The notes: generated from the sequence alone by a model not told the origin. A stretch of 64,000 nt of DNA from an uncultured Actinomycetes bacterium (GCA_963708365.1 CAVPSM010000011.1:67606-131605), one strand, 5' to 3'; positions 139 to 64,000 are shown, counted from the stretch's first letter. Program-made: numbers and translations.

Positions 139-257
139 GTCTAGCGCACGCCCACCGGCTGCTCGACCGCGTGAGGGCGAGACTCCATGTGCTCGTGAGT
201 CTACGACCACGCCGGTCGCCCGCTTGAGGACGCCGAGTCGTGGGCATGGGGTGACCC

Positions 258-650: not shown

Positions 651-658
651 CGTCGGCG

Positions 659-8065: not shown

Positions 8066-8066
8066 T
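8061..8066 (+). promoter_or_regulatory. -10 box TATAAT for a probably leaderless tetR transcript
   Basis: Consensus TATAAT lies 6 nt before the ATG at 8073, with no room for a Shine-Dalgarno. Leaderless mRNAs are common in Actinobacteria. Confidence 0.45.
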
Positions 8067-8072
8067 GGGAAG

Positions 8073-8684
8073 ATGCCACGGATCAGCGAACAAGACCGCG
8101 CCGTTCGCCGCCAGCGGATCGTCGATGCCGCGTGGAGACGACTCGCGACGAACGGCTACCACGATACGACCGTCGACAACGTGTGCGAAGAGGCGGGTGT
8201 CAGCAAGGGCGCCTTCTACGGCTATTTCGACACCAAGCAGGATCTCTTCCTTGCCCTGCTCGATGAGGAGACCGAGGCGCTCAACGGTGTCGCCGGCGAG
8301 CTGGCCGAACAGGAGCTCTCCGGGGCGGAGCGCGTGCGCCGGTTCGTCCAGGCGATGCTGGAGGTCGGAGACGATCCCGGCCGCGTGCAGCTGCGTGCCG
8401 ACCTGTGGTCGGAGCTGGCCGCCGACCCGATCGTCCGCACCCGCTTCGCCGAGACGGTCGAACGGAGGCGGGAGGTCTTGCGGGAATGGATCATCCGCAG
8501 CATCGACGCCGGTGATCTCGGCATCGAGCAGCGCCGCGCGAACGCGCTCGCGTCGATCCTGATCGCGATGGCAGACGGGCTGATGCTCCACCGCGCCCTT
8601 GACCCACGCGGCTTTCGCTGGTCGAACATCCGAGCCGTGCTCGACGCACTGATCGCCGGGATCGACCGCTCACCCTCGGCATGA
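8073..8684 (+). CDS. TetR/AcrR family transcriptional regulator
   Basis: The N-terminal HTH RIVDAAWRRLATNGYHDTTVDNVCEEAGVSKGAFYGYFDTKQDLF is a canonical TetR_N domain. The stop overlaps the ClC ATG (ATGA at 8681-8684). Confidence 0.85.
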   Translation: MPRISEQDRAVRRQRIVDAAWRRLATNGYHDTTVDNVCEEAGVSKGAFYGYFDTKQDLFLALLDEETEALNGVAGELAEQELSGAERVRRFVQAMLEVGDDPGRVQLRADLWSELAADPIVRTRFAETVERRREVLREWIIRSIDAGDLGIEQRRANALASILIAMADGLMLHRALDPRGFRWSNIRAVLDALIAGIDRSPSA

Positions 8685-10536: not shown

Positions 10537-10977
10537 ACGCCGAAGCAGCACCCGCCCCAATGGCCGCGCACATGCTGCTCTGGTTTCGCATCTGCCTGCG
10601 CCACGCTGGCTCGGAAACCACAAGAAGATCAACCGCGACCCGATCGCGTACCGCTTCGGCCGCGAGCGCTACCTCGAGTGCCTCCCCAAGCGAAGGAAGT
10701 TCGGCCTCGACCTCTCTACGGCGAGGCCGCGCGAGCACTCGGCCTCGCACCGCTTACGCCGGCTACCCGAGCCACGGCCGCCGCAGCATAAACGACGACG
10801 ACAACGCCGCCACCGCCGTGGGCGGCGCCTGCCTCCGTTCTTCGGCCGCGAGCTACGAAAGACTCCGAGCGGCCGACGCCCCTCTCATCTCTGCCCTCCC
10901 GCAGCCCGATGGCCTGTGGAGCCCCTACTTCCGTATCACGGGCCGAGTTATGAGAGCAGAAATGAGAGGAGCGGAGA

Positions 10978-11050
10978 TGGAGCTAGTCGGGCTCGAACCG
11001 ACGACCTCCACGCTGCCAGCGTGGCGCTCTCCCAGCTGAGCTATAGCCCC
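10978..11050 (-). tRNA. tRNA-Ala (anticodon GGC)
   Basis: Reverse complement GGGGCTATAGCTCAGCTGGGAGAGCGCCACGCTGGCAGCGTGGAGGTCGTCGGTTCGAGCCCGACTAGCTCCA folds as a 73-nt cloverleaf. It has the G3:U70 Ala identity pair and anticodon loop CTGGCAG. Confidence 0.9.
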
Positions 11051-11623
11051 AGATCGGGGCGCAGTATAGCCCCGCTCACCGCCGGCACCAGCGGCCCGGC
11101 CGGGTGCACGGCCATCCCGCGCGGCTCGGCGAGCCGCTCCAGGACGAGCGCGGTGTCGGCGATCGGCACGCCGGAGAGGTGCTGGTCGCGCGCCTCGAAG
11201 TCGGCCACGATCTCGGCCAGCGCAGCCGCGTAGGCCGGCCGGTCGCCGGCGCCGAGCGCCGCCAGGGCACGGCCGGCGCGCGCGAACGAGTCGCCGGCGG
11301 CGAGCATCGCATCGACATCCGGCGTCTGACCGAGCGTCACCTGTGCCAGAGCCCGCACGTAGGCCGACGCCGGCAGACTCCGCATCGCGGGTCTCGGCGA
11401 GCGACTGGTGGGCGATCGCCTCCGCCTCATCGCCCGCCAGAATCGCCATCTTGAGCGCGCCCAGCAGCCGGCCCCAGCTGCGCGGCCCGGTCTCGGCGTG
11501 CGACGCCAGGTAGGCGTCGCGGGCGCGCACGAGCGCCGGCCCGGCATCCCCGCCGGCGAGCAGGCCGCGGTAGGCGTCGGCCTCGGCGGCGAGCGCCGCG
11601 TTCAGGAGCTGCCCGGCGCTCAC
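11041..11623 (-). CDS. hypothetical Ala-rich protein, one frameshift
   Basis: The GTG start overlaps the upstream stop (GTGA at 11620-11623). N-part VSAGQLLNAALAAEADAYRGLLAGGDAGPALVRARDAYLASHAETGPRSWGRLLGALKMAILAGDEAEAIAHQSLAE is in ORF 10925..11701. It continues as LPASAYVRALAQVTLGQTPDVDAMLAAGDSFARAG...ADFEARDQHLSGVPIADTALVLERL in ORF 11041..11547. Confidence 0.45.
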
Positions 11624-12027
11624 CCGAGCGGCTTCCGGCCGGCGAACCCCTCGTCGGGCGAGTGCCAGAACGCGATCCGCTCCTCGCCGACGTGCCAGCA
11701 CAGCAGCGCGTCCTGGCCGTCGACCTCTGCCGGAAAGTCGATCAGGCCGCGGTCCATGTCCTTCACCTGCACGCCCTCGGCGGTGAACCTCCCGACGATC
11801 TCCTGCAGCTCGGCGTGCGATGCCTCCACGGCGGCGCGCAGGTCGCGTACCTCTGGCCGCTCCATGTTGCCGCCGTTCGAGCCGATCGCGATCACGAGCT
11901 TGCGCCAGCGGGCCTCGAGATCACGGCTCTTCGCGCGCTCCTCGACCATCCGCTCCGCCAGCGCGCGGAGCTCCGCGTCGAGGAGCTGTTGCGCCTCGAG
12001 AAGTGTGAACCGCCGCTCCTGCTCCAC
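11620..12027 (-). CDS. DUF2203 family protein
   Basis: 135 aa from a GTG start: ERRFTLLEAQQLLDAEL ... GVQVKDMDRGLIDFPAEVDGQDALLCWHVGEERIAFWHSPDEGFAGRKPLG. This matches the conserved DUF2203 C-terminal signature (LCW..GE..I.yWH....GfaGRkP). Confidence 0.6.
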   Translation of the reverse strand: MEQERRFTLLEAQQLLDAELRALAERMVEERAKSRDLEARWRKLVIAIGSNGGNMERPEVRDLRAAVEASHAELQEIVGRFTAEGVQVKDMDRGLIDFPAEVDGQDALLCWHVGEERIAFWHSPDEGFAGRKPLG

Positions 12028-12032
12028 CGGGG

Positions 12033-12407
12033 CTACCCGGCCGCGTACGTCTCGCTGGGCACCTGGCCCCACAGCGCCTCGAGCCGGTAGAACGACCGCG
12101 CCTCGGGCGTGAAGACGTGCACGACCACGTCCAGGTAGTCGAGCAGGATCCAGTCGCCCTGGCGGTGCCCCTCCACCCGCCGGGGCATCAGCCGGTCGCG
12201 CTTCAGGCGTCTCCGCGATCTGGTCGGCGATCGCCTGCGTCTGCCGGGGGTTTCGCCCGGAGCAGATCACGAAATGGTCCGTGTAGCTGACGACGTCGCG
12301 CATGTCCAGGATCACGATGTCGATGGCGAGCTTCTCCGCCGCCAGGGACGCGATGCGATGCGCGAGCTGGGTGGTGTCTGTCAGGCGCTGATCCCCATCG
12401 AACGCGA

Positions 12408-12411
<4 letters not shown>
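12033..12411 (-). CDS. rsfS: ribosomal silencing factor RsfS (iojap-like), one frameshift; start uncertain
   Basis: [45 protein letters not shown] continues, after one extra C near 12205-12212, as [48 protein letters not shown]. No canonical start codon is visible at the expected N-terminus. Confidence 0.75.
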
Positions 12412-14534
<2,123 letters not shown>

Positions 14535-15036: not shown

Positions 15037-17562
15037 GAGCGCGCGGAACGGTTCCAGAGCGCCGCGCGCGCTCGCGGGCGCCAGGATGCTTCCCCAGCAG
15101 GCCGCGCTTGCGCTCGCCCGCCGCACCGCCGTCGCCGTCCGCAGCGGCTCGCTGCCGGCGGCCGGCTCGGGCGTCGGCGCCGAGGCCGGCGCCGGGCGTC
15201 GGCTGCGCGGCGCGGCGGCCCGCGTCGGAAGCAGCCGCGGCCTCGGCGGTCTTCTTGGCCGGTGCGCGCGCGGCGTGTCCGCGGCTTCGGCGCGCCGGCG
15301 GCGTCGTCCGCCGGCGGCATCCGCCGCGGCCGGGCGCGTGCGGCTCGTCCGCAGCCGCGGCGGACGGCGCCACTCCCCGGTCGGCCGGCGCCACTCCCCG
15401 TCGGCGGGCGCCGCGCCGTCGCGCTGCAGCGGCGGCCGACTTCGACCGTCCGCGCCCACCGCGCTTACCGCGTCGGCGCTGCTTCGTCGGCCGTCTCCTC
15501 GCCGCCTCGACCGCGGTCGCATCGACCACGTCGGCATCGGCGGCCGGCCCTGCCTCGACCGCCGCCTCGTCCGCTTCTCGTCGGCTGCCTTGGCCTCGGC
15601 TGCCTCGGCCGTCGCCGACTTCGCGCGCGACCGCCGCCGCGGCTTCGGCCTCTCGGGCGCGGCCTCGTCGGTCGGCCTCGGCGTCCGCCGCCTCGTCGCT
15701 GGCGGTCGACGCCGCCGCTGCGGCTCGTCTTCGCCGGCGTCTTGCGGCGCGCGCGCGGCCGCGGCCGCGCTGCTCCAGCTCCAGCCGCTCGCCGACCTCG
15801 CGGTCGAACTCGGGGAGCTCGAAGTCGCCGGGCTCCGGCGGCAGGTCGATCGCCGTCGGCTTGGCGTCGAGCAGCGACGCATAGGCCGTCGTGCGCGTGG
15901 CCCGGTCGATGCGCACCTTGTGCTGCTGGCCGACGTAGCCGATCGCGCCCCCGACGACGACCGGGTATCCGCCGTCGAGGCGGGCAACGCCGTCGGTGAG
16001 GTTGTACATGTGCGGCTCGGAGATCTGCACCGACTTCTCGTCGCCGTCCTTGACCGCCAGGCCGTCGCCGTCGACCTCGGCGCGCGTGCCCTCGCGGATC
16101 AGCTCGACCTCCTCGAGCGGCATGCCGCTCGACCGGCTCGAGCGTGAACAGCTTGCCGGTCTCGCGCTCGAGCTCGAGCAGCTTCATCTCCGCCCGGCGC
16201 CGACGAGGCCGGACGCGACCTTCGCGTTCATCTTGACGAGGAACGCCTCGGAGCCGGACGAGCGGGCGAGCCGGCGCAGCCGGCGCTCCGCCTCGACCGC
16301 CATCGTCTGCTCGGAGAGCACGAGGCCCTCGCCGCCGCAGGTCGGGCAGGTGCGGGTGAGGATCTCGCGCACGCCCGTCGGTCACGTTCTGGCGCGTCAT
16401 CTCGACGAGGCCGAGCGGCGAGATCTCGACCAGGTAGGTCTTCGTGCGGTCGTGCTCGAGCTCGGACTGCAGCACCTTCAGCACCTCGGCGCGGTTCTTC
16501 GCCGACGCCATGTCGATGAAGTCGATGACGATGATCCCGCCGATGTCGCGCAGCCGCAGCTGGCGCATGACCTCGCGCGCGGCCTCGATGTTGTTGCGCG
16601 TGATCGTGTCCTCGAGCCGGCCCGACTAGCCGACGAACCGGCCGGTGTTGACGTCGATGACGGTGAACGCCTCGGCGTAGTCGAAGATCAGGTAGCCGCC
16701 GGAGGGCAGGTCGACCCGCCGGTTCAGCGTCGAGAGGATCGCCTGGTCGACGCCGTGGCGCTCGAACAGCGGGACGCTGTCGGTGTGGAGCTTGATCCGG
16801 TCGGCGAACTCCGGCTGCGTCGTGCGCACCCAGCCCAGGATGCGGCGGTACTGGCGCTCGGAGTCGACGATCACCTCGTCGACGTTGCGTGCCAGCAGGT
16901 CGCGGATCACCTGAGCGAGAGGTCGGCCTCGCGTAGACGAGGCTCGGCAGCTTGGCCGGCTTGGCCCGCGCCTCGACCTGCGCCCACATCTTGTGCAGGA
17001 AGCGCAGGTCGCGCTCGAGGTCCTCGGCGGTGGCGCCGGCTGCGGCGGTGCGAACGATGATGCCGCCGTCGTCCTGCTCGAGCGCCTTCGCCAGCTTGCG
17101 CAGCCGCTCGCGCTCGCCGTCGGGCAGGCGCCGGGACACGCCGGAGCCCTCGCCGTGCGGCGAGAGCACGAGGAACCGGCCTGCGATGGAGAGCTCCATC
17201 GTGACGCGCGGCCCCTTCGTGCCCATCGAGTCCTTGACGACCTGGACGAGCACCTCCTGGCCGGGCTTCAGCAGCTCGTCGATCTTGCGCCGACGGCGCG
17301 ACTTGGGGTCCTGGCCGGGCACGACGACGTCGTCGACGTACAGGAAGCCGTTGCTGGGCAGCCCGAGGTCGACGAACGCCGCCTCCATGCCGCGCAGGAC
17401 GTTGTCGATCTTGCCCTTGTAGATGTTGCCGGCCAGAGAGCCCTCGCCGCGGCGCTCGATCAGCGCCTCGACGGTGCGGCCCTCCTCGATCACGGCCACC
17501 CGCAGCTCGGACAGGTCGACCGAGATCAGGATTGTCTTGGAAACGTTGGATGTGAGTGTCAA
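15024..17562 (-). CDS. rne: ribonuclease E/G family endoribonuclease with TRAM-like domain and Arg/Ala-rich tail, at least 5 frameshifts; 3' end uncertain
   Basis: S1 domain GNIYKGKIDNVLRGMEAAFVDLG. Catalytic core pieces GYLIFDYAEAFTVIDVNTGRFVG and LRDIGGIIVIDFIDMASAKNRAEVLKVLQSELEHDRTKTYLVEISPLGLVEMTRQ. Zn-link TCPTCGGEGLV. Then GVARLDGGYPVVVGGAIGYVGQQHKVRIDRATRTTAYASLL, followed by a low-complexity R/A/E tail. TTG start at 17560-17562. Confidence 0.85.
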
Positions 17563-46533: not shown

Positions 46534-48121
46534 GCCCGCCCACGGCGGCGGCTATGCCGTCGCCTCCCCCCACGCCGACGCGACCGAGGCCGGAAGGGCC
46601 GCCTTCGCCGCCGGCGGAAACGCCGTCGACGCCGCCCTGGCCGCGGCCTGCGCCCTGACCGTCGTCTACCCGCACATGTGCGCGGTGGGCGGCGACATCA
46701 TGGCCCTCGTCCACGACGGCGAGGCCCACACGATCAACGCCAGCGGCCGCGCCCCGGCCTCGGCGCCGGCCGGTGCCGAGGTGCCCGAGCGGGGCGTCGG
46801 CACAATCACGGTGCCCGGCGCCGTCTCGGCCTGGCACGCGATGGCCGAGCGCTGGGGGTCGCGGCCGGCGTCGGCGGCGATCGAGGTGGCGGCCCAGCTG
46901 GCCGAGACCGGCGTGCCCGTGGCCCGGTCGCTGGCCGGGGCGCTGGTCGAGGAAGCCGACCTGGTGGCCGCGGATCCCGGCATGCGCGAGGTCTTCTCGT
47001 CCGAGGGCCGTGTGCTGCGGATGGGCGACACCCTCGTCCAGCCGGCGCTCGCCGCGACCCTGCGGCGGCTGGCGGCGAACGGCGCCGACGAGCTCTACCG
47101 CGGCGAGACCGGCGCGCGCCTGGTCGCGGGCCTGGCCGCCCTGGGCTGCCGGCTGACGACGGAGGACCTCGCCGCCCACCGGGCCGACATCGAGCGTGCG
47201 CTCCGGCTGACGATCGGCGATCTCGAGCTCAACACGATGGGCGCGAACTCACAGGGGTTCTGTCTGCTGCAGATCATGGCGACCGTCGCGCACCTCGGCC
47301 TCGACGATCCGCTCGGCGGCAGGGGCGCCGATGCTCGCGAGCCGTCTTCCGCGAGTCGGCCCGCGACCGCGACACCTACCTCGCCGACCCGGCCGCGATG
47401 ACGCGCCCGGTCGAGTCGCTGCTGACGCCGGAGCACATCGCAGGCCTGGCCCAGCAGGCGGCCTCCTCGGTCGCCCGGCCCGAGGTGACGACGCCGGCTC
47501 ACGGCGACACGATCGCGGTCGTCGCCGCCGATGCGACCGGCCTCTCGGTCTCGCTGATCCAGAGCATCTTCGCCGGGTTCGGGTCCGGCGTTCTCGAGCC
47601 GGAGACCGGCATCCTGCTGCACAACCGCGGAGCCTGCTTCTCGTCCGACCCGACCAGCCCGAACGCGATCGGCCCGGGCAAGCGGCCCCTGCACACGCTG
47701 ATGCCGCTCATCGGGACGACGGACGGCCGCCCGACCTGGGTGGCGGGGACGATGGGCGGCCGCGCGCAGGCCCAGATCCACGCCCAGCTGCTGCTGCGGC
47801 GGCGGGCGGGCGGCGACGTGGTGACAGCCGTCTCGGCGCCGCGCATGATCGTCGGCGACCTCGAGATCGGCGGCCGCGAAGTCGCCGTCGAGGAGGACTT
47901 CGCGACCGCGCGCGACGCCTTCGCGCGGGCCGGGTGTCGAGCCGGCCGTGATGCCGCGGCTGAGCGAGGACGCCGGGCACGCCCACGCCATCGTCCCCGT
48001 CGGCGACGGAACGTTCGAGGCCGCGTCCGACCCCCGCAGCGATGGGGCGGCGGTCTGCTCGTCGAGCGCCGCGCGGCCGACCCGCTGCTCGACGTCGCCG
48101 GCCTGCACGTCGAGCTCGTGA
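46526..48121 (+). CDS. ggt: gamma-glutamyltransferase family protein, at least 2 frameshifts; 3' end uncertain
   Basis: ASPHADATEAGRAAFAAGGNAVDAALAAACALTVVYPHMCAVGGD. Autoprocessing/nucleophile region HGDTIAVVAADATGLSVSLIQSIFAGFGSGV. PGKRPLHTLMP; MGGRAQAQ. The C-terminal AASDPRSDGAAV is in a third frame. Confidence 0.8.
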
Positions 48122-49083
48122 TCGGAGGGCAGCTGCGCCCCGTGATCCACGAGGTGTCGCTGCAGATCCGCGCGGGCGAGGCGGTCGGGCTCGTAGGCGA
48201 GTCCGGCTCGGGCAAGTCGATGACCGCGCGTGCGATCGCGCGGCTGCTGCCGGCGGGGGCGAGCGTCTCGGGCGACATCACCTTCGGCGGCCGCCGGGTG
48301 CTCGACATGGGTGCGCGCGAGCTGCGCGCGTACCGAACGGACGGGATCGCGATGATCTTCCAGGACCCACGGGCGCACACGAACCCGGTTCGCCGCATCG
48401 GCGACTTCCTCACCGAAGCGCTGCGGACGTCGAAGGGCGTCCGCGAGGACGAGGCCAAGCGGCGAGCCGTGGCGACGCTGGCCGAGGTCGGCATCGACGA
48501 CGGCGCCCGCCGCCTGCGCCAGTTCCCGCACGAGCTCTCCGGCGGGATGCTGCAGCGGGTGATGATCGCGGCCGCGCTGCTGTCGGAGCCGCAGCTGCTG
48601 CTTGCGGACGAGCCGACCACCGCCCTCGACGTCACCACCCAATCCGAGGTGATGGCGATCCTCGACGACCTGCGCCGCGACCGCGGCCTGGCGATGCTCT
48701 TCATCACCCACGACCTCGAGCTGGCCGGCGCGGTATGCGACCGCACCTGCGTGATGTATGCCGGGTCGATCGTCGAGCAGCAGTCGAGCGCCGGCCTGAA
48801 CTCCGACCCCCTCCACCCCTACACGGCCGCCCTGCTCGCCGCCCGGCCACGGCTGGACGCCGCGTCGGGCCGCCTGGCCGCCATCGCGGGGCGGCCCCGA
48901 TCGGCGTTCGAGGCGCCGGAGGGGTGCGCGTTTGCCGACCGCTGCCCCTACCGCGAGCCACGGTGCACTGCCGAGCAGCAGCAGCTGCGGCCGCTTGGCG
49001 CCGGCCTGGTGCGCTGCCGCCGGGCCGAAGAGGTGCACGCGGGCCTGCGCGCCCTCCACGACGAGGCGGGTGCCCGTGGCTAG
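48055..49083 (+). CDS. peptide ABC transporter ATP-binding protein (DppD/OppD-like); start codon unclear
   Basis: Walker A GESGSGKSMTARAI, LSGGMLQRVMIAAAL, LLLADEPTTALD, C-terminal oligopeptide-type extension PLHPYTAALLAA...CAFADRCPY. Confidence 0.85.
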   Translation: MLVERRAADPLLDVAGLHVELVIGGQLRPVIHEVSLQIRAGEAVGLVGESGSGKSMTARAIARLLPAGASVSGDITFGGRRVLDMGARELRAYRTDGIAMIFQDPRAHTNPVRRIGDFLTEALRTSKGVREDEAKRRAVATLAEVGIDDGARRLRQFPHELSGGMLQRVMIAAALLSEPQLLLADEPTTALDVTTQSEVMAILDDLRRDRGLAMLFITHDLELAGAVCDRTCVMYAGSIVEQQSSAGLNSDPLHPYTAALLAARPRLDAASGRLAAIAGRPRSAFEAPEGCAFADRCPYREPRCTAEQQQLRPLGAGLVRCRRAEEVHAGLRALHDEAGARG

Positions 49084-55313: not shown

Positions 55314-55447
55314 GCTAGTTGGCGCAGGCGCGGCGAGTCGATCCCCTTTACAAAGGTTCTCAACAAAATTCGCAAGTCGTCACAAAGCGGTCGGGCAGAT
55401 CGCAACTCGCATATTCCACTACAAGCAGGCGCACGTACACTGGAGTG

Positions 55448-56479
55448 ATGTGGAGATGGGTACTCCCGGTCGCGGTCGTTGTCGCGGTCCTCTTCGGGTT
55501 CATGGCGAGCCGCAACGGACCGACGCAGCACACGAAGGCGCACGCGCCTCCGGTGATCACGACGCCACCGACCACCGCCACTCAGACGGCGGCGCCGACG
55601 TGCGGGACGAAGCGCGGCCAGCAGGCGAAGGTGCGCCACGTCGTCTGGATCTGGATGGGCACCCAGGGCTACTCGCACGTGATCGGGAAGCTGCAGGTCG
55701 CGCCGTACACGAACCAGCTCGCCCAGGCGTGCGGGCTCGGGACCCGGTACACGACGATCACGCACCCGGCGATCGCAAACAACGTGGCCGCGCTCACCGG
55801 CGACACCCACGGGCTTGTCCACAACTCGTGTGGGACGGCGTGCACGACGACGGCACCGAGCCTCCTCTCGCAGGTACCGTCGTGGCGGGCGTTCATCGGC
55901 GGCATGCCCGGGGCGTGCCGCAAGCTGGCAGCGGCGAACTACTCCCGCCTGTCGAACCCGCCCACCTACGTGACCCCACCCGGCTGCACGAAGTACGACC
56001 TGCCGCTGGGGACGACGAAGCAAGGCCCACTGCAGCGGACGATCGCGCAGAACGCGCTGCCGGCGTTCACGCTGATCGTGCCCGACGGCTGCCACGACAG
56101 CGGCTTCGACAAGCACTGCGGCGGCAAGCTGAAGCGGTCCGCGTTCCTGGCCCGGGCGGACCTGTGGCTGAACGGCTGGATCCACACCATCACGAGCTCG
56201 CCCGCCTACACGTCTGGCTCGACCGTCATCTTCGTCACCTGGAACCAGGGCGCGCCGGCGAAGCCGTTGCGGATCGACTGCACGTCCCGCCCGGCCGGCG
56301 GCGCGTGCCAGGTACCCCTGATCGTCGTCTCGCCGTACGTCAAGCCCGGCCTGGCAGCCCCGGTCCGGCTGACTCATTACAGCCTGCTGGGAGCGACGGA
56401 GCGGCTGCTTGGCGTGCCGCCCCTGGCGCACGCGGCCGGCCCCTCCGGCCTTGCGCTCCTGCGGGCGTTCGGCCTGTGA
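55448..56479 (+). CDS. secreted phosphoesterase family protein (phospholipase C / acid phosphatase-like, PF04185 type)
   Basis: Signal anchor MWRWVLPVAVVVAVLFGF, Thr/Pro linker, then VVWIWMGTQGYSHVIG...APYTNQLAQACGL...ITHPAIANNVAALTGDTHG...TLIVPDGCHDSGFD...VIFVTWNQG, typical of this family. Confidence 0.7.
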   Translation: MWRWVLPVAVVVAVLFGFMASRNGPTQHTKAHAPPVITTPPTTATQTAAPTCGTKRGQQAKVRHVVWIWMGTQGYSHVIGKLQVAPYTNQLAQACGLGTRYTTITHPAIANNVAALTGDTHGLVHNSCGTACTTTAPSLLSQVPSWRAFIGGMPGACRKLAAANYSRLSNPPTYVTPPGCTKYDLPLGTTKQGPLQRTIAQNALPAFTLIVPDGCHDSGFDKHCGGKLKRSAFLARADLWLNGWIHTITSSPAYTSGSTVIFVTWNQGAPAKPLRIDCTSRPAGGACQVPLIVVSPYVKPGLAAPVRLTHYSLLGATERLLGVPPLAHAAGPSGLALLRAFGL

Positions 56480-57748
56480 GGCTCCTCGCTCTCGCGGCGC
56501 TCGGCTGCACCCTGGTCCTCGCGGCCGGGTGTGGCGGTAGCGGCGACTCGTCGGGCAACGGCGGGGTCGGATCCGGTCCGCTGCCGCCGCCCGCGCCGCC
56601 GGTGAGCACGGGCAAGGCGGCCCACATCGTGAAGCCGTGGGTGACGACGTCCGGCGGCAAGTTCGTCGACCAGAACGGCCAGCAGGTGATCCTGCACGGG
56701 TTCGACATGTCGGTCGGGATGTCGCACCTGGCCCCGGTGGCGCAGCAGCTGGGCGCGAACATGGCCCGCGTCTACGTCGGGTGGGACGCGATCCAGCCGC
56801 AGGCGACCCGAGAATGGGCACTACCGCTGGGACGCGAAGACGCTCGGGAAGCTCGACAAGATCGTCGCGGCCTTGGCGGCCGTGCACATCAACGTGCTGA
56901 TCGACTTCCACCAGTTCCACTGGTCGCCGTACTTCGCCCAGGCGACGTGCAAGGCGGGCAAGGCCGTCTGCCGGGCCAGCGGCGTGCCCGCGTGGTACTA
57001 CGCCGGCGGCCGCTTCCCGGCGACGCGGAGCGGCGAGTCACACGCCGAGGCGGCGTTCTGGACGACCGAGGCGTCGCGCTCGCAGGCCTACTACTCAGCC
57101 TTCGCCAGCATGATCGCCGCGCGCTACGCGCACGATCCCAACGTCGTCGGCTACGAGATCATTAACGAGCCGCACCCCGGCAAGCTGGGCGACACGACGG
57201 ATGCGACGAACACGATGCTGCGCTGGGAGGCCGGGATCCGCCGTGCCATCCAGAAGGTCGACCCCACCCGCACCGTGTTCATCATGTGCCGCGGCGGCGG
57301 CGAGGGCGTGGGTACCGCGAGCCTCAAGCCGTTCGGGTCGCTCGACCATATGGCGCTCGACTGGCACGACTACTTCAACGGGCTGTCCGGCGGCCTCGAC
57401 TCGGCCGGCGACAACTGGGTGCCGTCATGGGCGGACACCCACAACCAGGAAACGTCCGCCTACACGGGCACCGCCGCGGCCCAGGCACGGGTGCTCCGGG
57501 TGCCGCTCGACCGCGCCAAGGCGTGGGGCATCCCGCTCCTCGTCGGCGAGTGGGGCTTCCACACGGGCGCGCCGGGGAGCGACACGTACCAGTCGCAGAT
57601 GCTCCAGCTCTTCCAGAAGAACGACGTGAGCTGGACACGCTGGGTGCTCGCGACCGGTGGCGGGTTCGCCCTCCTGAACGCCGACGACACGCCGACGCCC
57701 GAGGCCACGCAGCTCGGCGCGGCGATGCACGCGACCACCACGCCGTAG
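56476..57748 (+). CDS. glycoside hydrolase family 5 lipoprotein, one frameshift near 56810
   Basis: The GTG overlaps the upstream stop (GTGA). Lipobox LALAALGCTLVLAAGCGG. GH5 acid/base motif GYEIINEPH and nucleophile motif LLVGEWG. The N-part is in ORF 55450..57165 and the body in ORF 56873..57748. Confidence 0.75.
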
Positions 57749-57757
57749 CCACTGGCG

Positions 57758-59344
57758 CTAGGCCGTTGCCATGCGCTCGGCGCGGCGGCGCCGGCGGGAG
57801 CGCAGCGTGCCACCGAGCAGCACGAGCTCGACCGGGTCGCGGAACTTCCAGAGCAGCGCGGCGTAGCCCGCCGTCCCGACGACGGCGCAGATGACGAGCG
57901 CGGGGATCGTTGCGCCCATCGTCAGGCGCAGGGCCATCCCGAGCACGCCGAAGCAGAGCAGCGAGCTCCCGGCGGCGACGGGGAACCCGCGCCCGAACGG
58001 GTGCACCTTCAGGAACGCGCGCACCTCGGCGAGCGGGGCCACGTTGTTCACGAGGAGGCTGCCGGCCCAGGCGATGGCCGCGCCTGAGATTCCGATCTGC
58101 GGGATGAGGAGGAAGCTGAGCGCGATGTTCACCGTCAGGGCGACGATGACGTTGAAGAGGTTCCAGAAGCTGCGGCCGCCCATGAGGAGCACCATGTCGA
58201 CGGGCCCGATGCCGGTGGCGACGAGCATCGTCACGGCCAGGATCTCGAGGGACGACGTCCCGGCCACGTACTGGGGCTTGAACACCTTCAAGAGCAGCGG
58301 CGCGAACACCGCCAGGCCGATGTACATCGGCCACGCCATGGTTATGAGCCACGCGGTCGCGACCTGGTAGACGTCCTTGGCCCGCTCGCGCGCCCCCGCC
58401 GTCAGCAGCTCGGAGAGCTTGGGCCCGATCGCCTGGATGACCGCCATGTTGACGACGCTGCCCGCTACCAGATACCGGGTGGACGCCGTGTAGATCGAGG
58501 CGCTCGCGGTGTCCATCAGCGAGCCGACCAGCAGCGTGCCGATCCACAGCGTCGTCACCTGGAAGACGCCGGTGAGCCCGCGCGGCGCCGTGAAGACCCA
58601 GAATTCGCGGTAGAGCCGCCGCATATCGGTCGGCGGCTTCGTCGGGCGCTCGCGCCGCTCCACCCTCTGGACGAGCCGCCCCAGCCAGACGAGCGTGATG
58701 GCGAACGCGATCCCGATCGGCAGGCTCCACGCGACCGCGACCGCGAAGCTGCCGCCGCCCGCGAGCACGGCCACGGCGACGGCGACCGTCTGTGCCCCCG
58801 ACTTGCCGATCCGGTCGAGGAGCGCGTTGGGCACCATCGTCCCGAAGCCGCGCGTCGCGGCAATGGCCACCGTGTACGCGCTCGAGAGCGGCAGGAACAC
58901 CGCCAGGACGCGGATGTAGGTCGCGACCGCGTCGGCATCCTGGGGGCGGTGGTTGGTGAAGATGGCCGCGAGCGGCGCGGCCAGCGCGAACGAGATCGCC
59001 GCGAGCAGCACGCCGGCGGCGAACGAAGGGATGAGGCCCACGCGGAGGCTGCGGCGCACGTCCCCGATCCGGCCGCTCACGCGGTAGCTCGGGATCATGC
59101 GCGTGAGGCCGGTGTCGGCGCCAAGCTCGGCGGTGTTGGAGAGGATCAGAAAGAGCGCGATCGCCTCGAAGAAGGCGCCGGACTCGTTGCGCGTGAGCGC
59201 CCGCGTGACCACGACGACGAGCGCGAACTGGAAGATCCCGTTCGCGACCGCCCCGATGAAGTTCAGCGACCCGCCCCGAGCGACCATCTTGAGGTCGTCG
59301 GTGCGCTCCCGCAGCGCTGCTGCGGGCTCGTCGACGGCGGTCAT
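57758..59344 (-). CDS. polysaccharide flippase, MOP/Wzx family
   Basis: Start chosen at MTAVDEP (the ATG overlaps the upstream stop as ATGA at 59341-59344). About 14 TM helices. The N-terminal ARGGSLNFIGAVANGIFQFALVVVVTRAL is typical of Polysacc_synt flippases. Confidence 0.8.
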   Translation of the reverse strand: MTAVDEPAAALRERTDDLKMVARGGSLNFIGAVANGIFQFALVVVVTRALTRNESGAFFEAIALFLILSNTAELGADTGLTRMIPSYRVSGRIGDVRRSLRVGLIPSFAAGVLLAAISFALAAPLAAIFTNHRPQDADAVATYIRVLAVFLPLSSAYTVAIAATRGFGTMVPNALLDRIGKSGAQTVAVAVAVLAGGGSFAVAVAWSLPIGIAFAITLVWLGRLVQRVERRERPTKPPTDMRRLYREFWVFTAPRGLTGVFQVTTLWIGTLLVGSLMDTASASIYTASTRYLVAGSVVNMAVIQAIGPKLSELLTAGARERAKDVYQVATAWLITMAWPMYIGLAVFAPLLLKVFKPQYVAGTSSLEILAVTMLVATGIGPVDMVLLMGGRSFWNLFNVIVALTVNIALSFLLIPQIGISGAAIAWAGSLLVNNVAPLAEVRAFLKVHPFGRGFPVAAGSSLLCFGVLGMALRLTMGATIPALVICAVVGTAGYAALLWKFRDPVELVLLGGTLRSRRRRRAERMATA

Positions 59345-60264
59345 CGCTCCGCCCGGTCGCGCTCGCCCGCCGGCCATCCCATCCGCATGCCCAGGAACTC
59401 CTCCAGCCTCCGGTTCGGCTCGGCGTAGTGCGCCTCGAGCCGCTCGCGTGTCGCGGCCGCCATGCCCGCGGCCGGACGTGCATTGTAGGCCTTGAATCCG
59501 GGAGCGTTCGGCGGGTCGGGCAGCCCGAGGAAGCGGAGCACTCCGGCATACACCAACGCCGGGTCGGCGAAGAAGCGCTCGGCGCAGATCACGTGCATCT
59601 GGTCGGCCGGGAAATGCTCCCGCCACGCCGCCAGCTGGTCGGCGTACTCGCCCCGCGCCACGTAGGCGTGATGCTGCACCGCCGGGCTGGCGTAAGTCGG
59701 ATCCGCCAGCATGTGCTCGCGCTCGCCGGCGAGGCGCGACGGCTCGAGGTCGAGCGCCCGCTCGAACGTCTCCGCGTCCTCGAACCCGCGGGCGTACTCC
59801 TGGCGGTAGTGCGAGTAGGCGCGCTCCACCGGGTCTCGCAGCATCGCGATCACGCGGGCCTTCGGCACGGCCGCCGCCGCCCGGGCCGGTCCGTGTGGGT
59901 GGAACAGGTAGTAGGGGCTGCCCTCGCCGGTGACGATCGGGCCGCCGTGGCGGTGCTCGCGCGCACGCCGTGCCCGCTCGGTGGGGAAGTGCGCCCGGTA
60001 CCAGCGCAGGCTGCGATCCGGGTGCAGGTCGAAGTAGTGGACGCCCTTGCTCGGCGTCGCCGGCATCACCTGCGGATGTTCGAGCAGGTAGCGGTAGAGC
60101 GATGTCGTGCCGCTGCGCTGGGCGCCGATGATGAGGAAGTCCGGCAGCGGCCGCTGCGACGCCGTCAGCATGTTCCAGGCGGTGACGGCCTCGCGGCCCG
60201 CCGTGATCACGGGCGCCGGCAGGCGCGAGTAGTTGTCGTTCTTCGATCCGCGCTCGCGCGGCAT
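59341..60264 (-). CDS. sulfotransferase family protein (ST1)
   Basis: 307 aa from MPRERGS. 5'-PSB motif DFLIIGAQRSGTTSLYRYL, 3'-PB motif VIAMLRDPVERAYSHYRQ. The upstream stop and this ATG share one base (TGATG). Confidence 0.85.
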   Translation of the reverse strand: MPRERGSKNDNYSRLPAPVITAGREAVTAWNMLTASQRPLPDFLIIGAQRSGTTSLYRYLLEHPQVMPATPSKGVHYFDLHPDRSLRWYRAHFPTERARRAREHRHGGPIVTGEGSPYYLFHPHGPARAAAAVPKARVIAMLRDPVERAYSHYRQEYARGFEDAETFERALDLEPSRLAGEREHMLADPTYASPAVQHHAYVARGEYADQLAAWREHFPADQMHVICAERFFADPALVYAGVLRFLGLPDPPNAPGFKAYNARPAAGMAAATRERLEAHYAEPNRRLEEFLGMRMGWPAGERDRAER

Positions 60265-61070
60265 CAGCGAATCCCCTCGAGCGGCGTGAGCAGCTGGGGC
60301 TTGCGCAGGCTGTAGCCGAAGCGGCCGACCCGCTCCTCCAGCGTCTCCATGGCCTTCTCGATGTCCGCCCCGGTGCCCGGGTTGTGCCGCGCCAGCGACC
60401 AGCGCCGGAAGTAGGAGTCGTTGATGTCGGTGCGGACGTGCAGGCCGCTCGGGCGCGGCTCGATACCCGTGAAGCGGAACACCTCGGCCAGGCGCTCGTC
60501 CGGGTTCGAGACGAACTCCTCGTAGCGCATGATCAGCATGTGGTCGATCGCCGCCGCGTCTTCGAGCATCACCTCGTGGCAGTGCAGCCAGTGCTCGACC
60601 AGCGACGAGTAGGACATGCGCCGCCACATCCGCCGCGCCCGGCCGAACCGGCGCGTGGCGGCGGCCACGGCGATCGGGTGGCGCAGGATCATGACCATCC
60701 GCGACCCGGGGAAGAGCGCCTGGAGGAAGCGCGCCCGGATCAGGTTCGGCGGCGACTTCTCGACCAGCACGGGCCGGGACATGTCCCAGTACTTGCCCCA
60801 CTGCTCGAGCAGGCGCGTGCGGCTCGCGTCGGAGACGAGCGCCGATGTCTCTGTCAGGTGCGCCTCGGGGTCGAAGCCGAACCGGCCCGGCCCGCCGTAC
60901 GCGCGCCCCGGCTGGTACACCGTCTGCAGGTGCTGGCCCTCGTCCTCGCGCGCGCCGGTGCCGGAGAAGCCGCTCACCTCGGGGTGCTCGGCCATGCAGC
61001 GGGCGAGCAGCGTGGTGCCGCTGCGGTGCAGACCGCCGATGAACACGAAGGTGTGCTCCTGCCAGTCCAT
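60264..61070 (-). CDS. sulfotransferase family protein (ST2)
   Basis: 268 aa from MDWQEHTF. TFVFIGGLHRSGTTLLARCM P-loop-like PAPS motif. MVMILRHPIAVAAATRR in the 3'-PB position. Confidence 0.8.
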   Translation of the reverse strand: MDWQEHTFVFIGGLHRSGTTLLARCMAEHPEVSGFSGTGAREDEGQHLQTVYQPGRAYGGPGRFGFDPEAHLTETSALVSDASRTRLLEQWGKYWDMSRPVLVEKSPPNLIRARFLQALFPGSRMVMILRHPIAVAAATRRFGRARRMWRRMSYSSLVEHWLHCHEVMLEDAAAIDHMLIMRYEEFVSNPDERLAEVFRFTGIEPRPSGLHVRTDINDSYFRRWSLARHNPGTGADIEKAMETLEERVGRFGYSLRKPQLLTPLEGIR

Positions 61071-61072
61071 CG

Positions 61073-62413
61073 TCACGCCGGGACGAGCGCCCTCCGCAGC
61101 GCAGGATCGATCGGCCGGTTCGGGGCCGGTTGCGGCTCCGTGTCGGTCTCCGGGCCTCGCATCATCACACGGTAGGCGATTGCAGCCGCCACCAGCATGA
61201 TCGGAAGCCGTTCGGTGATCTCGTAGTAGGGCACCTGGATCAGCGCTATCAGCAGCGTCACGTGCGCCCAGAACGCCCATGGCGAGCGCCAGCGAGCCGA
61301 CCGGAAAAGGGTGTAGAAGAACCACAGCATCCACAGGCCGAGGCCGGGGATACCGTGCGAGAAGACGAGCAGGAAGATCTCGCTCTCCGTGCCGACCGAG
61401 CTCTGCGTCGGGTCGGAGGACGGCAGCGGCGCCCCGAACCCGAGCAGCGGCGAGTCGAAGAGCCGCTGCTGGGCCTCCTGGTCGCGCTGGATCCGACCGG
61501 TGTCGCCGGTCTTGTGCTGGAACCGGCCCTGGGCGAGGTCGCCCAGCGGGCTGAACGCCACGACGGCGGCGAGGAGCGCGAGCACCGCCAGCACGCGGCG
61601 GACCTGGCGGAAGTCCCCGCGCATCGCGAAGCGGATCGTCGCGTAGATGATGCCGATGCCGAGGCTGAGCCAGAGGCCGCGGTTGAGCGAGAACACCACC
61701 GGAACAAGCGAGAGGGCCATCGCGATCTGCAGCGTCCGTCTCCATGAACGCGACCTGGCCTGGGTCATCGCGCAGATCGCGAACGGCGTGAGCATCGCAA
61801 AGCTCGAGCCCCAGGCGTTCGTGTACGGGAAGAAGGTCTCGGGCCGCCCGACGGGGAAGCCGAGGAAATGCTGCACCTCTGCGAACTGCAGGTGGACGTG
61901 CTCGAACACGTACTGGTTGTGCAGGAGCCCGTGGGGGAGCACGTACTGCATCGGGCTGGCGAAGCTGACGTTCGGGAAGAGCACTCCCAGCCACCCGCCG
62001 AACACGATCAGGATCCAGTAGAACGCGAGCGAGTTCACGATCGTGCGAATGGAGAGCTTCCAGTCGGGCACGTTCACGATGTAGAGGAAGATCACGGTGC
62101 CGGCGCCGTAGAACGACGCCCGCCAGGCCCAGGCGATCATCCGCCCCGTGTTGGTGAGCTCGATGCCGGAGGCGCAGATCCACAGCACCAGGAGCAGCCA
62201 GATCCCGAACCGGCGCGGCGCCTGCATGTCACCTCGGCGAAGCGCAAGCGAGCCCGCCAGCGGGAGCGCGATCAGGACCCAGACGACCGCCGAGAGGCCG
62301 ATGAGCCAGAACAGCGGCAGCAGCCCGAACATCGCGTAGGCCTGCCAGCCCTGTGGCAGCACCCATCCCGGGGGCAGGTTGAGATTGGCCGGTGCAGCCT
62401 TGATCCGTCGCAT
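61073..62413 (-). CDS. O-antigen ligase / polymerase-like (Wzy_C family) polytopic membrane protein
   Basis: 446 aa, more than 10 TM helices, with a large loop before the last helices (FQHKTGDTGRIQRDQEAQQRLFDSPLLGFG), as in Wzy/WaaL-type proteins. Confidence 0.75.
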   Translation of the reverse strand: MRRIKAAPANLNLPPGWVLPQGWQAYAMFGLLPLFWLIGLSAVVWVLIALPLAGSLALRRGDMQAPRRFGIWLLLVLWICASGIELTNTGRMIAWAWRASFYGAGTVIFLYIVNVPDWKLSIRTIVNSLAFYWILIVFGGWLGVLFPNVSFASPMQYVLPHGLLHNQYVFEHVHLQFAEVQHFLGFPVGRPETFFPYTNAWGSSFAMLTPFAICAMTQARSRSWRRTLQIAMALSLVPVVFSLNRGLWLSLGIGIIYATIRFAMRGDFRQVRRVLAVLALLAAVVAFSPLGDLAQGRFQHKTGDTGRIQRDQEAQQRLFDSPLLGFGAPLPSSDPTQSSVGTESEIFLLVFSHGIPGLGLWMLWFFYTLFRSARWRSPWAFWAHVTLLIALIQVPYYEITERLPIMLVAAAIAYRVMMRGPETDTEPQPAPNRPIDPALRRALVPA

Positions 62414-62419
62414 GATGTC

Positions 62420-63361
62420 CTAGACGTGCTGGCGCAGGTAGCCGTAGCGGAGCAGGAGCGGCCACGTCACGAGCACGACGATCGATCGCGTCTTCGTGGC
62501 CATGCCGGTGCGCCAGGCCTCGTCGGTGCGCACCTTCTGGCGGCCATGGGCGAACCGCATCGGGTTGCCTCGCACGCTGTGCTGCCCGGAGACCTCGACC
62601 GAGTCGCCGACCGCGGAGAGGTCGTGCTCGCCGGCCTCGCCCATCTCGGCGAACATCCGCTCGAGCTCGCCGCGGGGATCGGCCGCGAGCGACTCGTACC
62701 GCATCCCGACGGTCGGGACGCGCAGCCGCCGCAGCACCTCGAAGGCGAGGTTGCACTCCATCCAGCGGACACCCGCCTTCAGAGGCGAGAACTCCTGGAA
62801 GAACGCGTCGCCGTTCGTGATCTCGGGCCGGGCCATCCGCTTCGCCCACGAGTGGGCGGCCCCGCGGCTGTCGCGAACGAGGTGCAGCACCCGCAGCCGC
62901 AGGCCCGACGCCTGCGCAGCGCGCAGGAAGTACGCGTAGGGCGGATTCTTGGTCGAGTCGACGACCACCTCGGCGCCGGACACCTTCTGGATCGCCCGGT
63001 AGACGCCCGCGGTCAGCTCGGCGTAGCGCTGCACCTTGCGGTGGTGCTCGGGGGCGAGCTTGCCCATCAGGAGCAGCGGGACGTTACGGTGGCGCAGGAC
63101 GGCGCTCTCGAGCTCGAGCACCTCGTTCACGTCGACGTTCTGCCAGCCGCCGAACGCCTCCTGCCCGACGGCCGTCCAGAACGGGCACTCGTCGAAGGAC
63201 AGGCCGCAGCCGCAGAGCTCGTTGCCCTCCGGCCCCGCCTGCCACACGTAGCGCAGCTCGCCGACCGAGACGAAGCCCGGCACCTCGGCGAGGACGTGGG
63301 CGAGCAGCGTCGAGCCGCTCCTCCCCCACCCGCCGATGTAGAGGACGGGGACGTCGCTCAC
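62420..63361 (-). CDS. sulfotransferase family protein (ST3)
   Basis: 313 aa. VLYIGGWGRSGSTLLAHVLA N-terminal PAPS motif and RVLHLVRDSRGAAHSW 3'-PB-like motif. Cys-rich insert ELCGCGLSFDECPFW. Confidence 0.8.
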   Translation of the reverse strand: MSDVPVLYIGGWGRSGSTLLAHVLAEVPGFVSVGELRYVWQAGPEGNELCGCGLSFDECPFWTAVGQEAFGGWQNVDVNEVLELESAVLRHRNVPLLLMGKLAPEHHRKVQRYAELTAGVYRAIQKVSGAEVVVDSTKNPPYAYFLRAAQASGLRLRVLHLVRDSRGAAHSWAKRMARPEITNGDAFFQEFSPLKAGVRWMECNLAFEVLRRLRVPTVGMRYESLAADPRGELERMFAEMGEAGEHDLSAVGDSVEVSGQHSVRGNPMRFAHGRQKVRTDEAWRTGMATKTRSIVVLVTWPLLLRYGYLRQHV

Positions 63362-63990
63362 GCCGGCCGCCGGGTCGCGGGATCCGAGCCCACGGCGCGG
63401 CGCCTGGCCGTGCGCGTCCGGTCGAGAAGCTCGTCGATCAGCTGCTCGAACGCCTCGACCGCCGGGCCGGGGCCAACGCCGGCGGGCGGCAGCTCGGCGG
63501 CGGAGCCAGCCAGGCCGAGGGCGCCGTCGAGGCAGGAGCGCACCTCCTCGTCGGACTGGGCCAGCAGGATGGCCCCGTCGCGGGCGATGCGCTGGGTGAA
63601 GGCGAGCTGGTGGTCATCGACGTGCTCGCCGAACTGCTTGCGGCGCGGGACGACGATGGGGCGCTTGCCGAGCGTCGAGGCGAGCATGATCGTTCCCGGC
63701 CCGCCGTGGCAGACGACGACCGCCGCCTCGCGCACCATCTCCTCCATCTCCTCGTGACCGAGGTACTGGCGATGCTCGGCCAGCTTCGGGACCGCCGAGG
63801 TGCCGGTCTGCACGAAGCAGCGGGCGACGTCGGAGCCGCCGGCTTCGAGCCAGCCGTCGATGAAGCGCGACATCCGGTCGAACGGGTGGTAGTCCGTGCC
63901 GACCGTGACGAAGACGAGTGGCAGCTGCGCGCTCAGAACAGGCCGCCGATCACGCGCGCGCCGGGGTAGAACTTGCGCTGCTCCTCCCAC
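63358..63990 (-). CDS. glycosyltransferase family 28 C-terminal domain protein (Alg13 / PssE / Cps14G-like); start uncertain
   Basis: LVFVTVGTDYHPFDRM ... VVCHGGPGTIMLASTLGKRPIVVPR ... GEHVDDHQLAFTQRIA is the Alg13-like half of a split UDP-sugar transferase. The only canonical in-frame start is GTG 63990, which overlaps the upstream gene by 57 nt. Confidence 0.7.
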   Translation of the reverse strand: MGGAAQVLPRRARDRRPVLSAQLPLVFVTVGTDYHPFDRMSRFIDGWLEAGGSDVARCFVQTGTSAVPKLAEHRQYLGHEEMEEMVREAAVVVCHGGPGTIMLASTLGKRPIVVPRRKQFGEHVDDHQLAFTQRIARDGAILLAQSDEEVRSCLDGALGLAGSAAELPPAGVGPGPAVEAFEQLIDELLDRTRTARRRAVGSDPATRRPA

Positions 63991-64000
63991 TGCACCACGA
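63933..64000 (-). CDS. Alg14 / PssD-like membrane-anchor subunit of split glycosyltransferase, C-terminal end only (gene enters from right edge)
   Basis: The reverse frame ends VVQWEEQRKFYPGARVIGGLF-stop (TGA 63933-63935). V.WE.....YP.A...G.LF is the typical Alg14-family C-terminus. It is adjacent to its Alg13-like partner. Confidence 0.5.
   Translation of the reverse strand, partial: VVQWEEQRKFYPGARVIGGLF

Follow-up and report, generated by a model that had tools for sequence, protein, structure and literature searches.

Can a soil actinobacterium assemble a sulfated polysaccharide with a small set of genes? This question is raised by a 64,000-nucleotide stretch of DNA from an uncultured Actinomycetes bacterium (GCA_963708365.1, CAVPSM010000011.1:67606-131605; the whole stretch is referred to here as the window), whose reverse strand carries six complete open reading frames (ORFs) and one cut at the window edge between positions 57758 and 64000. 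These genes encode the two halves of a split glycosyltransferase, three predicted sulfotransferases (ST1, ST2 and ST3), a Wzy_C-family membrane protein and a Wzx-type flippase. Sulfated polysaccharides are usually thought of as products peculiar to animals, algae and cyanobacteria. Profile searches, similarity to solved structures and structural modelling suggest that the operon probably encodes the compact machinery of a Wzx/Wzy-type route to a heavily sulfated glycan, either secreted or located at the cell surface.

Organization and conservation of the operon

The gene at the window edge (63933-64000; all operon genes lie on the reverse strand) comprises the C-terminal 21 codons of a PssD/Cps14F/Alg14-like protein, the membrane-anchoring half of a split GT-B glycosyltransferase, and is followed by the PssE/Cps14G/Alg13-like catalytic half (at most 210 aa; 63358-63990). 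Next come the genes for ST3 (313 aa; 62420-63361), the Wzy_C-family membrane protein (446 aa; 61073-62413), ST2 (268 aa; 60264-61070), ST1 (307 aa; 59341-60264) and, as the last gene of the operon, the Wzx-type flippase (528 aa; 57758-59344). GC content is about 70% throughout the window and reaches 0.90-0.97 at third positions of the operon reading frames. Read on the sequence, the pssE and ST3 genes overlap by 4 nt (GTGA), the ST3 and wzy genes meet as TAG + 6 nt + ATG, and the wzy and ST2 genes as TGA + 2 nt + ATG; ST2 and ST1 have one base in common (TGATG), and ST1 and wzx overlap in ATGA. An alternative upstream GTG for ST2 would overlap wzy by 4 nt, and the ATG (MDWQEH) is the start used by orthologues. 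The sole in-frame start of pssE is a GTG at 63990, 58 nt into the 3' end of pssD. In relatives, the pssD/pssE overlap measures 46-58 nt, and in other bacteria the pair occurs as a single fused protein, WelK; no sign of a programmed frameshift joining the two halves was seen here, in an analysis not aimed at recoding.

The seven genes form one translationally coupled glycan operon. A first-pass annotation of the window had described a packed reverse-strand operon here, and its ORF boundaries and all of its junctions match our reading of the sequence. The gene order that it proposed was likewise borne out by Pfam profiles, with the Wzx, ST1-3, Wzy_C and PssE proteins all scoring above gathering cut-offs, and by the identity of the PssD C-terminus to that of a related locus.

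When each species, represented by one genome, was scanned with the Wzy protein of the window, 11 related loci (loci are given L numbers below) were recovered, all in metagenome-assembled genomes, most of them labelled uncultured Actinomycetes and one Thermoleophilia. Close homologues of ST3 are labelled Gaiellales, and the host is probably an uncultured soil actinobacterium of this group. A literature search combining Gaiellales with sulfotransferase found no paper. The order Wzz-like, PssD, PssE, ST3, Wzy, ST2, ST1, Wzx is kept in all 11 loci, with 72-93% amino-acid identity among the operon proteins and ratios of nonsynonymous to synonymous substitution (dN/dS) of 0.11-0.42, and the three sulfotransferase genes are all under purifying selection by this measure. 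Two other views of the locus were rejected. A horizontal transfer island is contradicted by the GC content of the cluster (0.69-0.71, against 0.67-0.76 across the window), by its core-gene neighbours (mreBCD, rodA, valS, clpXP, tig) and by synteny across the 11 genomes; a pseudogenised operon is contradicted by the intactness of every operon gene that can be judged, despite frameshifts elsewhere in the window.

Three divergent predicted sulfotransferases

Membership of a sulfotransferase family was defined as a score above the Pfam gathering cut-off, 27 bits for Sulfotransfer_3 and 22 bits for Sulfotransfer_1. By profile, by similarity to solved structures or, in the case of ST3, by predicted fold, all three proteins are placed within the fold of sulfotransferases that use 3'-phosphoadenosine 5'-phosphosulfate (PAPS), and they are predicted to be PAPS-type enzymes. 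Their 5'-phosphosulfate loops, of the type xK/RxGT/ST behind the first strand, read GAQRSGTTS (ST1), GGLHRSGTT (ST2) and GGWGRSGST (ST3). Neither the 42 homologues of ST3 examined nor the orthologues of ST1 and ST2 vary in this PAPS-binding loop. All six sulfotransferase motif strings listed in the first-pass annotation occur in the translations. None of the three proteins has a signal peptide or a transmembrane segment. Similarity between ST1 and ST2 and between ST2 and ST3 does not extend beyond 25-47 residues around the PAPS loop (E 1e-4 to 1e-5), and no significant similarity was found between ST1 and ST3 by sequence comparison. Because what they have in common is restricted to this region, the three sulfotransferases are divergent and not recent duplicates, as had been proposed; a recent duplication was rejected, with similarity existing at the level of the loop only.

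ST1 scores 61.4 bits against Sulfotransfer_3 and 60.1 bits against Sulfotransfer_1 and resembles heparan-sulfate 3-O/N-sulfotransferases. Its sequence matches in the PDB are the heparan-sulfate sulfotransferases 3-OST-3 (E 1.4e-19) and NDST1 (E 6e-15), as well as the bacterial sulfotransferase 3rnl. The alignment with the animal 3-OST-3/NDST sulfotransferase domain (PDB 1t8u, 1nst) extends over about 210 residues with E values of 1e-19 to 1e-14, and both sides have the PAPS loop, an HxFD segment and the 3'-phosphate motif RDPxxRAxS, the RDPVERAYS of ST1 aligning with the corresponding motif of 3-OST-3. The loop GAQRSGTTS and the motif LRDPVERAYS are kept in orthologues down to 50% identity. 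ST1 differs from 3-OST-3 in having Arg for Lys in the loop, and Gly at the positions of the catalytic Glu184 and of Lys215. In the segment K-G-V-H-Y-F-D, orthologues as distant as 50% identity all have the Gly at the Glu184 position; the His and Asp are retained. Because the catalytic Glu is replaced by an invariant Gly, ST1 is a relative of the heparan-sulfate 3-O/N-sulfotransferase family and not a demonstrable member of it. It is presumably a cytoplasmic bacterial enzyme acting on a lipid-linked unit, whereas the animal enzyme acts in the Golgi on a finished chain.

ST2, with 93.2 bits against Sulfotransfer_3, resembles the tyrosylprotein sulfotransferase TPST2 (E 4e-9) and the CurM sulfotransferase domain (E 1.6e-4) among PDB sequences, and it has a weak NCBIfam match to NoeE, a Nod-factor fucose sulfotransferase. 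The strings GGLHRSGTT, EDEGQH and EKSPPN are invariant in its orthologues. In the alignment with TPST2, the Arg of the 3'-phosphate motif is present, the Ser is replaced by Ala and a Thr stands one residue later; equivalents of what we take to be Glu99 and Lys158 of TPST2 are retained. The TPST2 loop in this alignment reads GVPRSGTT, and TPST-type enzymes normally carry Arg where other loops have Lys.

The kinship of ST2 bears on whether every sulfotransferase of the operon works on the glycan. Its best solved relatives are tyrosylprotein sulfotransferases and a polyketide CurM domain, and it is missing from the distant PssD-PssE-ST3 clusters L012, L013, L018 and L019, as would be expected if at least one sulfotransferase, ST2 especially, acted on a peptide or protein tyrosine or on a small metabolite and were merely co-transcribed. 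We regard this as improbable, given that the ST2 gene is translationally coupled between those of Wzy and ST1, that it keeps this position, or stands directly behind ST3, in all Gaiellales-type clusters, that ST2 weakly matches NoeE and that the operon has no candidate peptide gene.

The replaced residues could also mean that ST1-3 keep the fold and are inactive or used for another reaction, leaving the glycan unsulfated. Besides the missing 3-OST catalytic Glu of ST1 and the missing 3'-phosphate-binding Ser of ST2, the supply of PAPS is presumed: no PAPS-synthesis genes were found in the 64-kb window or within 10 kb of the clusters of relatives, a motif scan of the window in all six frames gave no signature of APS kinase, CysN or CysD, and Pfam scans of 20 further window genes revealed no PAPS or priming genes. 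This explanation is very improbable in view of the PAPS-binding loop, which is invariant in all three families, of the purifying selection on all three genes and of the TPST-type enzymes, in which the loop Arg is the rule.

The ST3 family and the split glycosyltransferase

ST3 is the weakest profile match of the three (Sulfotransfer_3, 34.8 bits), and a PDB sequence search with it gave no match. An AlphaFold model built from 42 homologues reached a pLDDT of 92 and a pTM of 0.90, and in a Foldseek search against the PDB the eight best matches were all PAPS sulfotransferases, with TM-scores that are moderate, only 0.4-0.53. They are led by the CurM domain (4gbm, 3.6e-6), a tick TPST (8w5z, 7e-6) and an olefin-synthase domain (4gox, 9e-5), with plant SOT18, 3-OSTs and 3rnl ranking lower among the eight. 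Across the 42 homologues, R14-S-G-S17 and R163/D164 are invariant and S171 is nearly so; R163 and S171 correspond to the Arg and the Ser, spaced by about eight residues, of the 3'-phosphate motif. Three cysteines, C50, C52 and C59 (ELCGCGxxFxxCPFW), are also invariant in these homologues down to 47% identity and could bind a metal or be joined in a disulfide; we know of no description of such a cysteine site for sulfotransferases.

The subfamily of ST3, which is linked to PssD/PssE, is large and uncharacterised, with 9,061 representatives (at 50% identity) at E<=1e-3 and 2,319 at E<=1e-30. Among the best 150 representatives, 35 are at least 450 aa long and 18 have an N-terminal PssE domain; other architectures include ST3::GT2, PssE::ST3::GT2, nucleotidyltransferase::ST3(::GT2) and tandem sulfotransferases (GT, glycosyltransferase family). 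ST3 always stands behind PssD-PssE and is often fused to PssE, to a GT2 or to both. The distant locus L013 has the order Wzz/kinase, GT14, Bac_transf priming transferase, Alg14, PssE::ST3, GT2, and L018 runs from a tyrosine kinase, a response regulator, Bac_transf, Alg14, PssE and ST3 through two GT2 genes to Wzy, Wzx, GT4 and a methyltransferase. In L012, an ST1-like gene and two Wzz/kinase genes precede Alg14, PssE::ST3, two GT2 genes, Wzy, Wzx and GT4. Whether within a fused protein or in the gene order, ST3 thereby falls between the second glycosyl transfer and the third, and this position is the strongest argument here for sulfation of the lipid-linked unit at the cytoplasmic face during its assembly. 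The PssE-ST3 and ST3-GT2 fusions provide a concrete, testable model in which sulfation takes place while the repeat unit is assembled on the lipid carrier. In L018, a sulfatase gene (PF00884; 19233-20579, forward strand) lies a few kb from the PssD-PssE-ST3 cluster, which is consistent with turnover of a sulfated product.

PssE scores 49.5 bits against Pfam Glyco_tran_28_C (cut-off 22), 82 bits against the NCBIfam model of WelK, a beta-1,4-glucuronosyltransferase, and 74.7 bits against the NCBIfam PssE equivalog, below its cut-off of 120. The last 68 bases of the window translate to VVQWEEQRKFYPGARVIGGLF followed by a stop, identical to the C-terminus of the 149-aa PssD in L002, which scores 112.2 bits against NCBIfam PssD (equivalog cut-off 110) and 48 bits against Pfam Alg14. 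PssD/PssE of Rhizobium leguminosarum, Cps14F/Cps14G of Streptococcus pneumoniae and WelK (NF041549, NF041548, NF046028) are likewise split or fused Alg14/Alg13-type GT-B enzymes, and they serve Wzx/Wzy pathways. Cps14F/G, PssD/E and WelK, like MurG and Alg13/14, add the second sugar onto a lipid-diphosphate-linked first sugar. To our knowledge, the polymers of Rhizobium PssD/E, Cps14F/G and WelK are unsulfated and their clusters have no sulfotransferase, whereas in the present pair and thousands of its relatives PssD-PssE is followed by, or fused to, ST3.

Export, polymerization and the proposed pathway

The Wzx-type protein scores 35.4 bits against Polysacc_synt (cut-off 28.2), with a weak MatE match, contains about 12-13 hydrophobic segments and is 82-91% identical across related loci. 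The Wzy_C-family protein, a putative repeat-unit polymerase with a ligase as the alternative, has several transmembrane segments and 72-91% identity in related loci; a PDB sequence search found no solved relative, and an exact-sequence look-up returned no record. Beyond the window edge, orthologous loci encode a 551-aa Wzz/tyrosine-autokinase-like protein directly upstream of pssD (L002:6378-8033, forward strand, with orthologues in L003, L004, L007, L011 and L016). It has two transmembrane segments, a score of 110.7 bits against TIGR01007 (polysaccharide tyrosine autokinase; cut-off 108.05) and a weak Wzz match. Of the genes that the first-pass annotation had expected past the right edge, the chain-length regulator is represented by this protein in relatives; the priming transferase and PAPS genes are not, none having been found within 10 kb.

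In the proposed pathway, a priming transferase encoded elsewhere, none being present in the cluster, would transfer the first sugar phosphate onto a polyprenyl-phosphate carrier, and the split PssD/PssE, judging from its relatives, would add the second sugar to the lipid-diphosphate-linked sugar. ST3, then ST2 and ST1, would transfer sulfate from PAPS onto the lipid-linked unit at the cytoplasmic face. We infer the substrates of the three sulfotransferases, the sulfated positions and the order of action, as well as three sulfation positions on one repeat unit. Wzx would flip the sulfated unit, the Wzy_C-family protein would polymerise it and the Wzz/tyrosine-autokinase-like protein would set the chain length. 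Outside the cell, a convergently encoded GH5 glycoside hydrolase and a PF04185 phosphoesterase (see below) may trim or release the polymer. A cluster with a single glycosyltransferase would, in the simplest case, yield a polymer of disaccharide units, each bearing up to three sulfates.

Several observations weigh against this pathway, in addition to the residues replaced in ST1 and ST2 and the PssE score below the equivalog cut-off. Sulfation, sugars and polymer are all predictions from the genes. The disaccharide repeat is the weakest step, because the missing functions are evidently encoded elsewhere and further glycosyltransferases could equally be so; in relatives, no second glycosyltransferase was found within 10 kb on either side. 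No priming transferase was found in the 64-kb window or within 10 kb in L001-L011 and L014-L017, and a Bac_transf gene stands just before pssD in the more distant versions L013 and L018. A priming enzyme encoded elsewhere is common, as in WecA-dependent O-antigen loci. The Wzy_C score barely exceeds its cut-off (33.5 against 31.7 bits). The wzy gene is missing from the otherwise syntenic L016 (7264-14235) and L017, where ST2 directly follows ST3, and the wzx gene is missing from L014 and L015 (about 7000-14000), where ST1 stands directly before the convergent GH5 gene; the Wzy or Wzx function in these loci must be supplied elsewhere or be dispensable. Finally, where L018 has GEGKSTT, the Walker A motif of the Wzz-like kinase domain reads DEGTSTT, with Thr for Lys, and the C-terminal tyrosine cluster is reduced to a remnant with just two Tyr (YGGY); the protein of this lineage may be a pseudokinase.

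Several of these points would also suit a short sulfated oligosaccharide, not a polymer, which the Wzy_C-family protein would transfer as a ligase or O-oligosaccharyltransferase onto protein, lipid or cell wall. WaaL ligases and PglL-type transferases (O-oligosaccharyltransferases) are Wzy_C-family members too. Because the family also contains ligases, such a non-polymeric sulfated glycoconjugate is a live rival: the marginal profile match comes with no solved relative that could discriminate, a single glycosyltransferase is present, L016 and L017 dispense with the wzy gene and the Wzz-like kinase domain has no Walker A Lys. We nevertheless consider it rather unlikely, given that a chain-length protein of the Wzz or polysaccharide co-polymerase (PCP) type heads every version of the cluster, that the conserved extracellular GH5 suggests a polymeric substrate and that related clusters have the classical polymer layout of priming transferase, glycosyltransferases, Wzy and Wzx. 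A polymerised, sulfated glycan remains the probable product.

Comparison with known sulfated-polysaccharide systems

The first-pass annotation had regarded a Wzx/Wzy pathway for a sulfated polymer in such a genome as new, a claim that is overstated in the light of xss (PMC8205485), wps-1 (PMC13390465) and the Vibrio and Cobetia capsules (PMC11641403, PMC11766843). The present operon is not a new kind of system because of these precedents; its novelty lies in its minimal make-up, three sulfotransferases to one glycosyltransferase, in its lineage, in the large uncharacterised ST3 family with the PssD-PssE-ST3 module and its fusions, and in a co-conserved kinase of the aminoglycoside phosphotransferase (APH) fold in the gene set of the cluster.

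Synechan, the product of xss in Synechocystis sp. PCC 6803, is an experimentally shown sulfated Wzx/Wzy exopolysaccharide made with two sulfotransferases and eight glycosyltransferases, and its sulfation is thought to precede export (PMC8205485). Both xss and, by prediction, the present cluster have a Wzx/Wzy pathway, a PCP-type protein, more than one sulfotransferase of different subfamilies and an adjacent two-component regulator. However, the eight glycosyltransferases and two sulfotransferases of xss contrast with one split transferase and three sulfotransferases here; xss lies on a cyanobacterial megaplasmid, whereas the present cluster is found in a core chromosomal region of an actinobacterium; and the xss product was chemically shown to be sulfated, whereas sulfation of the present product is predicted from genes.

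The cluster wps-1 of Actinoplanes missouriensis, which encodes Wzx, Wzy, Wzz and two sulfotransferases, was proposed in June 2026, without chemistry, to make the first actinomycete sulfated polymer, and deletion of wpsH (a heparan-sulfate-like sulfotransferase) or wpsI (kinase-like) gives the phenotype of the whole-cluster deletion (PMC13390465). Common to wps-1 and the present cluster are Wzx and Wzy_C proteins, a Wzz-type protein, a sulfotransferase resembling heparan-sulfate enzymes, a kinase-like protein and a glycoside hydrolase, and neither has a priming transferase in the cluster. The adjacency of WpsG (Wzx), WpsH, WpsI and WpsJ (Wzy) is mirrored in L019 and L020, a likeness of architecture. 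However, wps-1 has GT2 and GT26 glycosyltransferases, a GH26, a methyltransferase and a second sulfotransferase of the Gal/GlcNAc type, whereas the present cluster has PssD/PssE, GH5, the PF04185 phosphoesterase and, in ST2 and ST3, enzymes of Sulfotransfer_3 type. As in xss and wps-1, at least two sulfotransferase genes are embedded with those of Wzx, a Wzy_C-family protein and a PCP-type protein.

Vibrio sp. KMM 8419 and Cobetia marina KMM 1449 likewise have surface polysaccharide loci combining Wzx/Wzy with sulfotransferases, and their solved capsule structures contain sulfate (PMC11641403, PMC11766843). Unlike the present host, these are Gram-negative marine bacteria, and their glycosyltransferase sets are larger.

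Neighbouring genes and other features of the window

The GH5 gene (56641-57748, forward strand), convergent with wzx, is frameshifted in the window: tblastn splits it over two frames that meet at 56807-56814, and it scores 68.5 bits against Pfam Cellulase, compared with 108.7 bits for the L002 orthologue. Orthologues are intact (368-418 aa) and lie downstream of the cluster in L001, L002, L015, L016 and L017; either the assembly of the window carries an indel at this point or the gene is a true pseudogene. Adjoining GH5 in all Gaiellales-type loci is a gene for a phosphoesterase with an N-terminal membrane anchor (55445-56479, forward strand; Pfam Phosphoesterase, 50.2 bits), whose one hydrophobic segment is N-terminal. 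PF04185 is a family of phospholipase C and acid phosphatase enzymes, and that this member frees the polymer from its lipid-diphosphate carrier is speculation.

Divergent from the Wzz-like gene are genes for a 406-aa protein without profile match, a GAF histidine kinase and a LuxR-type response regulator. The 406-aa protein (L002:4922-6142, reverse strand; homologues at L012:376-1485, L016:5869-7050 and L019:10001-11251) has few relatives, with 136 matches of which a handful carry PF01636, and a PDB sequence search gave nothing usable; a look-up of its Longispora albida homologue returned no record. Its model (pLDDT 90.5) structurally matches mycobacterial maltokinase, fructosamine-3-kinases, aminoglycoside phosphotransferases, a corramycin phosphotransferase and an actinobacterial glucosamine kinase, and the Lys, the HGD...N loop and the DWE Asp of this fold are invariant, so the model indicates an APH/maltokinase-like kinase fold with intact catalytic residues. 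The gene travels with ST1-like genes in L012, L015, L016, L019 and L020, much as wpsI accompanies wpsH in Actinoplanes; L019 and L020 have it within the operon itself, between wzy and the ST1-like gene, which wzx follows.

Elsewhere in the window, genes at 15465-17562 and 12548-14266 (reverse strand) and at 46676-49083 and 8681-10536 (forward strand) appear to be split between two or three reading frames or to continue into the gene beside them; among those affected are RNase E/G, the Obg/NadD region, a gamma-glutamyltranspeptidase beside an ABC ATPase and a chloride-channel-like gene. Several core genes apparently being broken across frames, residual indel errors of a long-read assembly are suggested. 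At 201-1697 (reverse strand), adjacent and apparently frameshifted fragments encode an encapsulin (Linocin_M18) and a DyP-type peroxidase, which are the usual shell-and-cargo pair.

Implications for bacterial glycan sulfation

From this cluster and its numerous relatives it would seem that ordinary soil bacteria produce sulfated polysaccharides as well. A far-reaching version of the proposal, unlikely in our judgement, is that a cassette of about ten genes (the split glycosyltransferase, three sulfotransferases, the APH-fold kinase, Wzx, Wzy, Wzz, GH5 and the phosphoesterase) produces a glycosaminoglycan-like disaccharide polymer of heparin-like charge in Gaiellales and related Actinomycetota that abound in soil. 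The ST3 family, often fused to glycosyltransferases and at least 2,300 clusters strong at 50% identity, would on this version be the marker of a glycan sulfation widespread in bacteria and of a large pool of sulfated glycans that has gone unrecognised. If the proposed pathway is correct, it would offer a small transferable gene set for the microbial production of heparin-like or other sulfated polymers. Sulfated glycosaminoglycan-like polymers occur in Pontiella strains and sludge granules (PMC7356697, PMC10483923), and the cluster would supply candidate genes for such material in granules and biofilms. Ester sulfate makes up 27 ± 13% of mineral-associated organic S (PMC13635771), and, speculatively, the cluster might represent a biological source of this soil organic ester sulfate.

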